NCBI GenBank assembly: GCA_963827165.1
Contig: CAWGZR010000005.1
Coordinates: 480,001-544,000 of the forward strand
Source: Candidatus Bathyarchaeota archaeon
GTDB lineage: Archaea; Thermoproteota; Bathyarchaeia; Bathyarchaeales; Bathycorpusculaceae
Direction: 5' to 3'
DNA length: 64,000 nt
Program-made: the position numbers and the translations under genes
The notes under the pieces: generated by a model
The model's input: only the letters and a program-made list of their open reading frames with translations
Databases searched by the model: none
Told to the model about the DNA's origin: nothing
Shown: in pieces, positions 46,477 through 49,527 of the stretch
Position numbering within the stretch: the stretch's first letter is position 1
Layout: the number at the start of each line of letters is the position of its first letter

Positions 46477-47546
46477 GGGTTGCATCCGCTTTCCCAATTT
46501 TTATTTTGCGCCACAAGCCTTGGCTTGCGAAAATGATAAGCGGGTAAGACACAATCCATATTATCGAGTAAAGCGGTCCGTAATAGAAGTGGAACATCTG
46601 CACCTGGTTTGATTCTACACCGTACTGCATGCCGATGTTGAAAATGGTAACAATTCTTAGTACATTTATGAAGTATGTGACGACTACGCCAACCGCAAAG
46701 TACCCCACTTTAGCCTTCCATGAGATATGTATCTGCTGAAGAAACACTATAAACTACCGCTGTGAAAATCAGGAAGCTTTCGATGCCAGCGCAGGGCCAA
46801 GCGATCGAGAATTTAGCGGTTCCCAGTGGCCCTGTGGCTTGAAGGGTTGGCATCCCACTCACTGTGGTCATGGAAGTGACGCATCCCATCCAATTCAGGG
46901 TTTTAGCGGCAAGTGTAGCCGTTGTCGGAACCAATATTTGGAAGGGTGTAAACTCGCCGTAGGGAAAAACGTTGTCGATAGTGTAAATTACTCCTACTAA
47001 TGCGGCGAATATTCCCGGCAAAGCAAGATCTGACAAGCCTTTTCTCCCGAAATAGAACAGTGCGATTGCGCAAAAGAGAGCTGAAAAAACCAAGTACTCA
47101 ATCGACAACGGCATAGTATCATAGAATGCGACTCCGCTATGCAAAGACCAGTTTGCTATGGCGCCGTTTAACCCAACATAGTACTCGGAAACTACGTAGA
47201 CAGTGGGAAGCAGTAACGCCAAGGCCAAAGCTGCGAGCTTTCCTGCACTTTGTCTGTTTATTTTTGGTTTGAAGGTATCCCAGTTGAGGATGAACTCTAG
47301 CGCCACGAGCCAGACGAAGAAAAGTTGGAACGTTCTGCCTTTCCACATTAACTGAAAAGACGCTTGAGGAGTGACTTGAAGGTACGGATCAGCGGGGTTA
47401 AGGATGAAAAGCAAAGCCATCGGGACAGCGAAAGCAATCAATGGTAAAAGCTTTACAATGGCGTCTGAGTTAGTTTCTTTTGGAAAACTCTGCATGGCTG
47501 CATCCTGCATGTACATAACGTTAAAAACATTCAGTTTAAAAAACAA
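46439..47546 (-). CDS. Exosortase/archaeosortase family protein (thaumarchaeosortase-like); frameshift near 46752
   Basis: WKGRTF, catalytic IAWPCAGIES, NVLRI, FHFYYG; multi-TM. Confidence 0.85.
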
Positions 47547-47699
47547 TGTGCCTTCCTCCCAAAGTTCAGACTATCAAACAAACAATGCAGAAACCAATCG
47601 GAGTCGTCGCTGTCGTTTGATTCATCCGGCGACTCATATTTTTGGCCGAAAGGCGAAAAAGTATAAGAATGCGTATGTTCCTTCTATGCAAAGCTGGTA

Positions 47700-47984
47700 G
47701 TGAAGAACGTGAACGTTCCTAAAGAAGTCAAGACTTACTGTCCCAAATGCAAAATTCATCAAATTCACAGTGTAACACTTTACAAAGCTGGAAAGCGTAG
47801 AGCTCTGGCTCACGGTGAACGAGCACACGCAAGAGAAAAAGAAGGTTATGGCGGGCAAAAATATGCGCTTCAAAGAGAATTCGCCAAAACAACCAAGAAA
47901 CAAACCCTGCGCCTCAAGTGCAAAGTTTGCAATTACATGAGGCATAAAGACGGTATTCGTCTGAGAAAATTAAATATACAGTAA
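47700..47984 (+). CDS. rpl44e: 50S ribosomal protein L44e (eL42)
   Basis: TYCPKC, GYGGQK, KTTKK, LKCKVC. Confidence 0.96.
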   Translation: MKNVNVPKEVKTYCPKCKIHQIHSVTLYKAGKRRALAHGERAHAREKEGYGGQKYALQREFAKTTKKQTLRLKCKVCNYMRHKDGIRLRKLNIQ

Positions 47985-48005
47985 TTTGTGGAGAGAAAAA
48001 AAGTC

Positions 48006-48203
48006 ATGTCTGAATGGAGTAAACTTATCCCAAAACCGCGAAGCGTCTTCCTCAGAGTTAAATGCTCAAAATGCGGAAATGAACAGTTGGTTTTCAGCAA
48101 CGCTGTTAACAAAATCACCTGCAACGTGTGTGGAGAAACGCTTGCTGAGCCCACTGGCGGACGAGCAAAGATTAATGGTGACGTGCAAGCCGTTCTCGAG
48201 TAA
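48006..48203 (+). CDS. rps27e: 30S ribosomal protein S27e
   Basis: FLRVKCSKCGNEQLVF, CNVCG, PTGGRA. Confidence 0.96.
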   Translation: MSEWSKLIPKPRSVFLRVKCSKCGNEQLVFSNAVNKITCNVCGETLAEPTGGRAKINGDVQAVLE

Positions 48204-48218
48204 GGGATGACGAAATTA

Positions 48219-48377
48219 ATGGCTGAGCGTAAGCCCGAGTGGCCTAAAGCCGGCGACCCGCTTATCGGAATGGTAAAGACAGTCACGGATTATGGCGCCT
48301 GCGCTCAAGTCTACGAATACACTCAACGCGGGATACTTCGTGCCTCAGGGCAAGGCACTTTTAGAAGGGAAAAATAA
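48219..48377 (+). pseudogene. eif2a: Translation initiation factor aIF2-alpha remnant (52 codons)
   Basis: MAERKPEWPKAGDPLIGMVKTVTDYGACAQVYEYTQRGILRAS-GQGTFRREK*; start of the S1 domain, at the canonical position between rps27e and nop10. Confidence 0.85.
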
Positions 48378-48545
48378 TTGGTCTGGCAACTTCGCAAATG
48401 CGTAAACTGCAGCAAATACACTTTGAAAAAAACCAGTTGCCCCTATTGTGGTGGACCTGTTAGGATTCCGCATCCAGCCAAGTTTTCCCCCGATGATAAA
48501 TACCTGAAGTATCGTATGGCAATGAAAAGGAGCAAAGATGCATGA
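48378..48545 (+). CDS. nop10: H/ACA RNP protein Nop10
   Basis: Manual translation MVWQLRKCVNCSKYTLKKTSCPYCGGPVRIPHPAKFSPDDKYLKYR. Confidence 0.95.
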   Translation: MVWQLRKCVNCSKYTLKKTSCPYCGGPVRIPHPAKFSPDDKYLKYRMAMKRSKDA

Positions 48546-49312
48546 AAGAAACTTACCTTAAGCAGTTTGCTGAGATTCACCCGAACAATCCGATTCTTAT
48601 TGAAGGCCTCCCCGGACTTGGGCTAGTGGGCAAAATCGCATTGCGTTACATGATTAAACAGCTAAGACCCCAAAAAGTAGCTTACCTCTACTCACCCCAT
48701 TTCCCATATTTCGTCTTAGTCAACAAGAAAGGAAATGTTCGCCTCCTAAGGGGCGTATTTTATTACTACAAAAACCCCAACGGAAACGACTTAATCCTTT
48801 TCACGGGCGACAGCCAATCCCAAACAATCGAAGGACAGTACGAAATCGCCGATCAAATCCTCAACTTCTCAGAAAAACACAACGTAAAAACAATCGCGAC
48901 AATCGGTGGCTACCGAATGGAACCCACAGAAAAACCCAAAGTCTTCATCGCGGCAACATCGCAAGAAATCCTTGATAAAGCCATCAACGCAGGTGCAACA
49001 CTTAGCACCTCAGGAAGCCCCATCGTTGGAACAGCAGGATTGATACTTGGCCTAGCAAAATTCAAAAAAATAGATGCCCTTTGCTTATTGGGCGAGACAC
49101 GTGGCTACCTTCCCGACCCGCTTTCGGCAAAAAGTGTACTTGAAGTTTTAAAATCTACGTTTAACTTCGACTTAGACCTTAAAGGATTAGACGAGGAAAT
49201 TGCTCGGGCAGAAACAATGGTTAACCGGCTCCAGCAGATAGAAGAGAAACGTGCCCTTGAAGCTGAACAAACAAGAAAAGAAGACGACAAAAAAACAACC
49301 TACATTTCCTAA
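48542..49312 (+). CDS. PAC2-family proteasome assembly chaperone
   Basis: IEGLPGLGLVGKI, GDSQ, TIGGY, LLGETRGYLPDP. Confidence 0.92.
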   Translation: MKETYLKQFAEIHPNNPILIEGLPGLGLVGKIALRYMIKQLRPQKVAYLYSPHFPYFVLVNKKGNVRLLRGVFYYYKNPNGNDLILFTGDSQSQTIEGQYEIADQILNFSEKHNVKTIATIGGYRMEPTEKPKVFIAATSQEILDKAINAGATLSTSGSPIVGTAGLILGLAKFKKIDALCLLGETRGYLPDPLSAKSVLEVLKSTFNFDLDLKGLDEEIARAETMVNRLQQIEEKRALEAEQTRKEDDKKTTYIS

Positions 49313-49378
49313 ATCAAAAATTTCCTAGATATATCCGCGGTTTTTTGGGTTGTCGTCCCTCCGCTGAAAGGTGAAAAC

Positions 49379-49495
49379 ATGGGGGGAACTGAATTTTGGG
49401 CATTGGATAAAGGCAAAGGAATTTGGGCGTTTTTTAGAGCTCTGATCAATTACGCGATCTTTGATTATTTCAGGTTTTGTGCCGGCAACAGCTAA
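49379..49495 (+). CDS. Putative 38-aa small protein
   Basis: TATA-like GATATAT at about 49328; AGGTGA SD 4 nt before ATG. Confidence 0.3.
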   Translation: MGGTEFWALDKGKGIWAFFRALINYAIFDYFRFCAGNS

Positions 49496-49527
49496 GACTG
49501 GCCGTCATTGCATCTTACGGCGTGCGC

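Follow-up and report, generated by a model that had tools for sequence, protein, structure and literature searches.

What has become of the gene for aIF2-alpha at this locus, and why does a short open reading frame still stand in its place? The sequence-only reading, made from the letters of the window (the whole stretch of 64,000 nucleotides analysed here), had given the gene order as rpl44e-rps27e-aIF2alpha-nop10-PAC2, and both the sequence and the Pfam matches agree with that order (Table 1). The place of the aIF2-alpha gene is held by a mini-ORF of 52 codons, which encodes the peptide MAERKPEWPKAGDPLIGMVKTVTDYGACAQVYEYTQRGILRAS-GQGTFRREK and ends at a TAA (48375-48377). A search for known RNA families across 47500-49500 gave no match at E <= 1.

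Table 1. Genes, motifs and remnant segments of the rpl44e to PAC2 block, in window positions.
Feature	Position	Strand	Remarks
rpl44e	47700..47984	+	first gene of the conserved block; Pfam Ribosomal_L44, 1.6e-24
rps27e (65 aa)	48006..48203	+	Pfam Ribosomal_S27e, 1.3e-21
GGGATGA, Shine-Dalgarno-like motif	48204..48210	+	8 nt upstream of the mini-ORF ATG; in-frame ATG at 48207
Vestigial aIF2-alpha (type B) mini-ORF	48219..48377	+	52 codons and TAA
Mini-ORF part from aIF2-alpha codons 1-43 (start of the S1 domain), decayed	48219..48347	+	47% identity to the type A paralogue
Mini-ORF part from the last nine codons and the stop (GQGTFRREK, stop)	48348..48377	+	two-block alignment
AGAAGGGA block	48363..48370	+	8-15 nt upstream of the nop10 start; near-constant among relatives
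Stop-start junction TAA/TTG	48375..48380	+	mini-ORF stop directly followed by the nop10 start, frame shared
nop10 (55 aa, TTG start)	48378..48545	+	Pfam Nop10p, 3.3e-24
PAC2-family gene	48542..49312	+	Pfam PAC2, 1.4e-44; its ATG overlaps the nop10 stop (ATGA)

The mini-ORF descends from an aIF2-alpha gene. Its residues 1-43 align with residues 1-43 of the full-length aIF2-alpha encoded by the same genome (20 of the 43 are identical, E = 4e-12), and its tail resembles the native C-terminus, GHGSFKREK. When the full-length gene in the operon of G088, a close relative, is taken as the reference, a two-block model, each block ungapped, matches 131 of the 159 nucleotides and implies one deletion of 627 nt, which removed the 209 codons 44-252, i.e., nucleotides 130-756 of the reference gene, and with them the EIF_2_alpha domain and the gamma-binding C-terminal domain. 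The deletion junction lies at 48347/48348, inside the interval of 48345-48350 that had been estimated by eye, and the alignments also confirm the earlier description of about 43 S1-domain codons fused in frame to the native C-terminus GQGTFRREK and its stop. Compared with a canonical archaeal aIF2-alpha (Pfam S1 and EIF_2_alpha, about 260 aa), the first 43 and the last nine codons of the remnant are homologous, whereas S1 is largely missing and domains 2 and 3 are missing entirely, and because of these losses the remnant cannot be a functional alpha subunit.

The part that was retained has decayed as well. The mini-ORF peptide matches no Pfam family at E <= 1, including S1 (PF00575), a profile of 74 positions of which the 43 retained residues cover only a part, and a whole-genome profile search with PF07541 (EIF_2_alpha) gave no match in the window part of contig C5. 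Over these 43 codons, the remnant in the window's genome (G000) differs from the sister remnants by 17-21 nonsynonymous changes, compared with about 7 among the sisters themselves. Likewise, dN is 0.19-0.25 between G000 and either G047 or G060 and 0.07 between G047 and G060; the pairwise values give an estimate of dN ~0.19 and dS ~0.35 for the G000 branch. The pairwise omega of intact operon genes is 0.03-0.04. The impression, gained from the letters alone, that the retained part is decayed is thus borne out by the Pfam silence and by the excess of nonsynonymous differences in G000. Given that the genome also encodes an intact paralogue (see below), that essential parts have been lost and that the constraint on the protein is relaxed, the remnant is a pseudogene of a duplicated gene.

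The junction in the mini-ORF is not an artefact. A check of sequence support across it had been recommended, and when run on assembled contigs, rather than raw reads, it returned the truncated form twice. One 2259-nt contig of run X1, which may be the source sample, spans 47927-49312 with two differences and no gap, and run X2, from another study, has two overlapping contigs (47996-48330 and 48316-48491) with one difference, which is synonymous. Remnants are also present at the same place in 61 other genomes of the genus. These genomes and the contigs from two studies support the original preference for real pseudogenisation over misassembly.

The alpha subunit itself is encoded elsewhere. A genome-wide search for aIF2-alpha, which had also been suggested, was run with the EIF_2_alpha profile on the whole G000 genome and gave a single match that passed the cut-off; it is on contig C7 (86.5 bits, 3.2e-24). 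The gene, G000:C7:12974-13759, encodes 262 aa in an uninterrupted frame and has both domains, S1 (5.5e-11) and EIF_2_alpha (5e-24, above the curated cut-off). A protein of about 260 aa with S1, EIF_2_alpha and an open frame is what is expected of a functional aIF2-alpha. The marker Pfam families for aIF2-beta and aIF2-gamma have one match each in G000. We refer to the gene on C7 as type A and to the operon copy as type B.

The intact two-domain gene on C7 rules out an alpha-less aIF2 in this organism, which was one of the two alternatives offered at the start, and the finding is thereby settled as a paralogue replacement. The other alternative, that the gene had relocated, is right insofar as an intact copy lies elsewhere; it was not a simple move, however, and one paralogue took over from the other after what appears to have been a duplication within the genus. 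Contig C7 belongs with the window's contig because the groupings of A, the neighbours of A and the relatives with both loci on one contig all agree. The A gene of G000 groups with the A genes of G047 and G060, as do the operon flanks; the neighbours of A that are common to these three genomes are L35Ae, a zinc-finger ORF, an 82-aa ORF and a 116-aa ORF; and A and the remnant are on one contig in G047 (C1), G052 (C4), G041, G001 and G002.

The history of the two copies can be followed in the genus, which consists of soil and peat Bathyarchaeia. The genus comprises 120 genomes, and the operon region was recovered for 116 of them; G106, G116, G119 and G121 were excluded, as none of them gave a PAC2 match at the chosen threshold. 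In the outgroup (other families of the order), ten genomes have a single aIF2-alpha between rps27e and nop10, and an eleventh locus starts inside aIF2-alpha, directly upstream of nop10 and PAC2. Therefore, the ten loci indicate that type B occupies the ancestral site. A tree built from 88 proteins has A (45 rows, SH-aLRT 100) and B (33 rows, SH-aLRT 92) as sisters inside the genus, and A and B together are split from the outgroups with a support of 99. The stem of A is long (0.26 vs. 0.083), and in this tree, which came from a quick search with a simple model, the root relative to that stem is insecure. This one quick gene tree suggests that the gene was duplicated either inside the genus or in a close relative.

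Comparison with sister genomes, another of the checks first suggested, was carried through for all 116 genomes. Full-length B is present in 54, of which 29 have a second full-length match elsewhere (type A) and 25 have B only. The remaining 62 have a B remnant, and 55 of these have an A match at E <= 1e-40, five of them fragmentary or interrupted (G096, G123, G125, G113 and G128). The seven remnant genomes with no A match (G094, G011, G063, G101, G033, G104 and G129) are all <=88% complete. An aIF2-alpha is found in every one of the 73 genus genomes with at least 90% completeness and at most 5% contamination. On the flank tree, the full-length and remnant states require seven changes, six of which are forced by well-supported branches, and therefore B was lost at least 6-7 times. 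A was lost repeatedly too; for example, G108, which is near the G000 clade, has B only. The A tree and the flank tree do not fully match (e.g., G065), and therefore a transfer of A between species is possible. G056 has two full-length type A copies (C9:18371-19156 and C8:27505-28290, 77-78% identical to the query), which point either to another round of duplication or to a mixed bin (the contamination is given as 6).

The shapes of the 62 remnants display a pattern that was not expected. From the rps27e stop to the nop10 start, they span 59-300 nt (120 nt in G016, for example). In 48 genomes, an ORF that starts at the ancestral ATG and begins ATGGCTGAGCG... ends 0, +1 or -2 nt from the nop10 start. 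In three others (G124, G109 and G105), an ORF with an end of the same kind starts at another ATG, which is in frame with the ancestral start in G124 and G109 and out of frame with it in G105. In total, 51 of the 62 remnants have a start-to-stop ORF that reaches the nop10 junction, and the other 11 either end off the junction or lack the start codon. Seven of the latter (G004, G031, G043, G114, G056, G112 and G090) end at a TAG 13 nt upstream of nop10, two (G060 and G059) end 28 nt inside nop10, and one (G080) has a new stop 5 nt upstream of it; in G077, ATA replaces ATG and there is no canonical start. The in-frame ORFs range from 14 codons (G049, MAERKPNSTFRREK and a stop) to 94 codons (G092).

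The remnants were sorted by junction and clade into 25 deletion classes, which were drawn by eye from alignments and are not fully independent. In 22 of the 25, the ancestral frame runs unbroken from start to stop in one member or more, and four of the 22 also contain frameshifted members. The clade of eight species that includes G000 has six deletions, of 501, 510, 543, 573, 594 and 627 nt, all of which are multiples of three. The in-frame join had been taken as a sign of pseudogenisation; the gene is indeed a pseudogene, but the start-to-stop frame is itself recurrent and apparently selected across the 62 remnants.

Some loci have more complicated patterns. The same 681-nt junction (...AY[AP]/F[RG]RE[KN], a 34-codon ORF) is present in G016 and in G013, G120, G111 and G117, which are in two separate clades of the flank tree; either deletion recurred at the same 2-nt microhomology or the locus was exchanged between species. 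G100 (C13:102801-103583) and G065 (C1:666998-667780) have a full-length B with internal frameshifts and stops. The start and the end of these two genes are still in the same frame, and the internal stops would end translation hundreds of nucleotides before nop10. The two genes represent either early stages of decay or assembly errors; the neighbouring PAC2 gene of G065 has six stops, and so this assembly may be error-prone. Frameshifts in neighbouring genes also mark the assemblies of G035, G063, G040 and G071 as error-prone.

The elements around the two starts bear on why the remnants have this form. The nop10 start is TTG in most genomes. The block AGAAGGGA is found in 59 of the 61 genomes inspected, regardless of whether B is full-length or a remnant, and its variants are AGAGGGGG in G041 and GGAAGGGA in G057. 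The 3' end of the 16S rRNA is GGATCACCTCCT, and the duplex between AGAAGGGA and this tail is weak (-4.1 kcal/mol). Because AGAAGGGA is conserved, it may serve as a weak Shine-Dalgarno site, and some de novo initiation of nop10 is possible. At the other end of the remnant, the rps27e stop is followed in many relatives by GGGATGA, or by GAGATGA in another clade, and the GGGATGA of the window is presumably a ribosome-binding site. The mini-ORF and nop10 are on the same strand with stop and start in contact (TAA/TTG in G000), and a B stop that abuts the nop10 start, overlaps it by 1 nt or is spaced 1 nt from it occurs in full-length and remnant genomes alike.

We propose that type A supplies the alpha subunit and that the 52-codon remainder would have no function as a protein. 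The nop10 gene, with its TTG start and weak Shine-Dalgarno match, would owe its translation chiefly to ribosomes that have just terminated at the adjoining upstream stop codon, in other words to termination-reinitiation. The only deletions tolerated in B would then be those that keep its ribosome-binding site and start, an open frame, the last codons and the stop against nop10, and the interior of the mini-ORF would be a free spacer that drifts. Since the remnants keep the entry site and the open frame and end at the next start, the 52-codon ORF can be read as a vestigial coupling ORF, and we consider it probable, from the comparison of genomes, that it has been kept for the translational coupling of nop10. 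There is also a reasonable case that nop10 depends on ribosomes delivered from the upstream ORF, and such a dependence would explain why natural "non-polar scar" deletions seem to have been produced repeatedly, in frame and down to 14 codons. A gene that has become dispensable within a coupled operon could then not be excised cleanly, and its start and stop would have to stay. The frame kept in 22 of the 25 classes and the avoidance of nonsense variants (see below) give this dependence indirect support.

The distances fit what has been reported for cultured organisms. In Haloferax volcanii, reinitiation is down 40-60% at a spacing of 13/14 nt and is about zero at 22-23 nt, and in E. coli an upstream gene needed to contribute no more than its final 15 nt (PMC10666635). 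The commonest failure among the remnants, the stop 13 nt upstream, thus has a spacing at which that study still saw partial coupling. RNA structure that might mask the nop10 start was also considered; the fold of 48340-48440 is no better than that of shuffled sequences (z = 0.40), which is neutral for reinitiation and speaks against coupling of the unfolding type. The contigs of an RNA run (X16) are 90-99% alike and none of them lies on 48186-48455; all but one are <95% alike, and so they are taken to come from relatives. Against coupling stand the 11 of 62 remnants that do not comply, the internal stops of G100 and G065, and the AGAAGGGA block that nop10 has of its own.

Termination-reinitiation has to be weighed against a neutral pseudogene, a reading that we regard as unlikely. 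In that case B would just decay, its 3' end would be conserved only because the ribosome-binding site of nop10 lies in it, the frame bias would come from microhomology and ancestry, and translation of the remnant would be irrelevant. The conservation of AGAAGGGA with or without an intact B is consistent with this, and so are the exceptions (10 of the 62 remnants end off the nop10 start, one has no start codon and two full-length B genes have internal stops). The null for an in-frame deletion is 1/3 if the frame is free; however, microhomology pairs in these genes are in codon phase in 40-54% of cases and not in 33%, which also favours plain decay, and the nulls become 0.40, 0.45 and 0.50 for microhomology of at least 2, 4 and 5 nt, respectively. 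The probability of at least 22 of 25 classes in frame is 2e-8, 1e-5 and 8e-5 at nulls of 1/3, 0.45 and 0.50, so that even the two higher nulls count against neutrality; if the four mixed classes are taken as failures (18/25), the values are 9e-5, 6e-3 and 2e-2, the last of which leaves neutrality some room, and all of these P values are only indicative because the classes were drawn by eye and nested deletions share history.

Among 174 unique interior variants in seven classes, 8.3 nonsense changes would be expected under random substitution and none was seen (P = 2.4e-4), which argues against a neutral pseudogene, as does the same architecture in at least 6-7 separate losses. The first five and the last six codons have a pS of 0-0.15, below that of the flanking synonymous sites (0.08-0.44); the start and the first codons are thus conserved too, and a ribosome-binding site for nop10 cannot explain this. 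The interior dN/dS within classes is about 0.3-9.4 (six classes, noisy), and that of the flanking rps27e and nop10 is 0.03-0.12. Taken together, these substitution patterns indicate that the constraint acts on being translated and on both ends, and not on the peptide.

The same signals, an open frame and a retained start, would be predicted if the open ORF served to keep ribosomes on the operon mRNA, either as protection from RNase or to avoid polarity on nop10-PAC2, with reinitiation beside the point. The nine genomes in which out-of-frame variants ending -13 to +28 nt from the nop10 start persist are in its favour. Such a cover for the mRNA does not need the exact abutment (0, +1 or -2 nt) seen in 51 of the 62 genomes, though, and this abutment fits the steep distance dependence of reinitiation (PMC10666635); we therefore think this explanation improbable. 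It is very hard to believe that the mini-ORF encodes a functional micropeptide, such as a residual S1-like RNA-binding fragment: it is conserved as an ORF in most genomes, but its length varies from 14 to 94 codons, its interiors are very unlike between deletion classes and have a dN/dS far above that of the flanking genes, and the G000 peptide, with 43 residues that are part of the S1 profile, lacks a Pfam match. Finally, a 14-contig assembly that is 94.5% complete with 3.9% contamination could in principle conceal a real full-length gene at this place or a truly alpha-less aIF2, but with the junction covered by contigs of runs from two studies, remnants in 62 genomes at the same place, an intact A on C7 with neighbours as in G047 and G060, and A and remnant on one contig in relatives, there is next to no likelihood of either.

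Translational coupling, reciprocal loss of paralogues and the decay of pseudogenes are all known already, and the vestigial coupling ORF proposed here resembles each of them in part. Where termination-reinitiation has been described in archaeal and bacterial systems (Huber et al. 2023, PMC10666635; review PMC12548453), the coupled genes are also co-directional, and the stop of one and the start of the next share 1 nt, touch, or have 1 nt between them (TAGTG, TAATTG). Little more than the 3' end of the upstream gene is needed there, with a steep effect of distance (PMC10666635), and the remnants keep these elements. The difference is that the upstream ORF would here be the vestige of a lost gene with no role as a protein; moreover, the known cases rest on reporter assays, whereas the evidence here is comparative, from repeated natural deletions in an uncultured organism.

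A second resemblance is to the engineered in-frame "scar" deletions of the Keio collection, in which the start is kept, a short in-frame peptide is left with the native end of the gene, and the downstream genes are undisturbed. The scar design of the original Keio paper reportedly keeps the last six codons. The remnants differ from Keio-style scars in that they are natural, repeated, 14-94 codons long and archaeal. The scar peptide has 34 residues, and polar effects are named as a concern, in a preprint (bioRxiv 10.1101/2022.02.16.479736). As in the reciprocal loss of duplicated genes, there was one duplication, after which some lineages lost one copy and some the other, with relaxed constraint on the copy being lost; what differs is that the gene is a core initiation factor in a conserved archaeal block and that the lost copy was trimmed to a constrained ORF and not erased. 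Full-text literature searches, with most subscription journals outside their scope, did not turn up any account of natural gene remnants that persist as coupling ORFs, and neither "pseudogene" nor "vestig" occurs in the text of the 2025 review PMC12548453. A search by title, with incomplete coverage of the literature, found no report of aIF2-alpha paralogues in Bathyarchaeia.

The paralogue replacement, as the question was posed, is ordinary, and the recurrent in-frame trimming is the part worth following. It amounts to an experiment that nature has replicated (over at least 6-7 independent losses, in 25 classes and 62 genomes) on a redundant gene upstream of an essential one, and it documents the reciprocal sorting of two core initiation-factor paralogues within one genus. 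The remnant pattern in these uncultured Bathyarchaeia matches the reporter results on termination-reinitiation in Haloferax and E. coli, and it suggests that obligatory coupling might be detected from genomes only. If the coupling interpretation is true, start-to-stop vestigial mini-ORFs would be a general comparative-genomic read-out of obligatory coupling in unculturable organisms, and such gene fossils would account for some of the "conserved small ORFs" found in operons. For annotation, it follows that such short conserved ORFs should be taken neither for micropeptide genes nor for assembly errors.

A few other observations were made along the way. Ten alignment positions set A apart from B. 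The Trp in SEISSSW(I/V)RNIRDF, a loop that we take to be the counterpart of the Ser51 loop of eukaryotic eIF2-alpha, is present in all ten outgroups and in at least 90% of the B genes. At residues 48-49 of type A, Arg replaces this Trp and the Ser before it is changed to Ala in at least 90% of the 45 A genes; in addition, type A has Trp in place of Tyr231. A functional shift of type A is possible. Directly downstream of type A in G000 is a 116-codon ORF (L001:1929-2279), the ATG of which overlaps the A stop. By tblastn, this ORF is immediately 3' of A in 32 of the 45 type A loci; it has no Pfam family and no usable match in the ESM Atlas, and possibly the relocated factor has acquired in it a new partner within its operon. 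Lastly, a PAC2-family paralogue outside of the window (G000:C5:164711-165388, ~36% identity) is matched across one in-frame stop, TAG. A stop in this paralogue is also present in many relatives, as TAA, TAG or TGA, and it could reflect two adjacent genes, a recurrent break or read-through.
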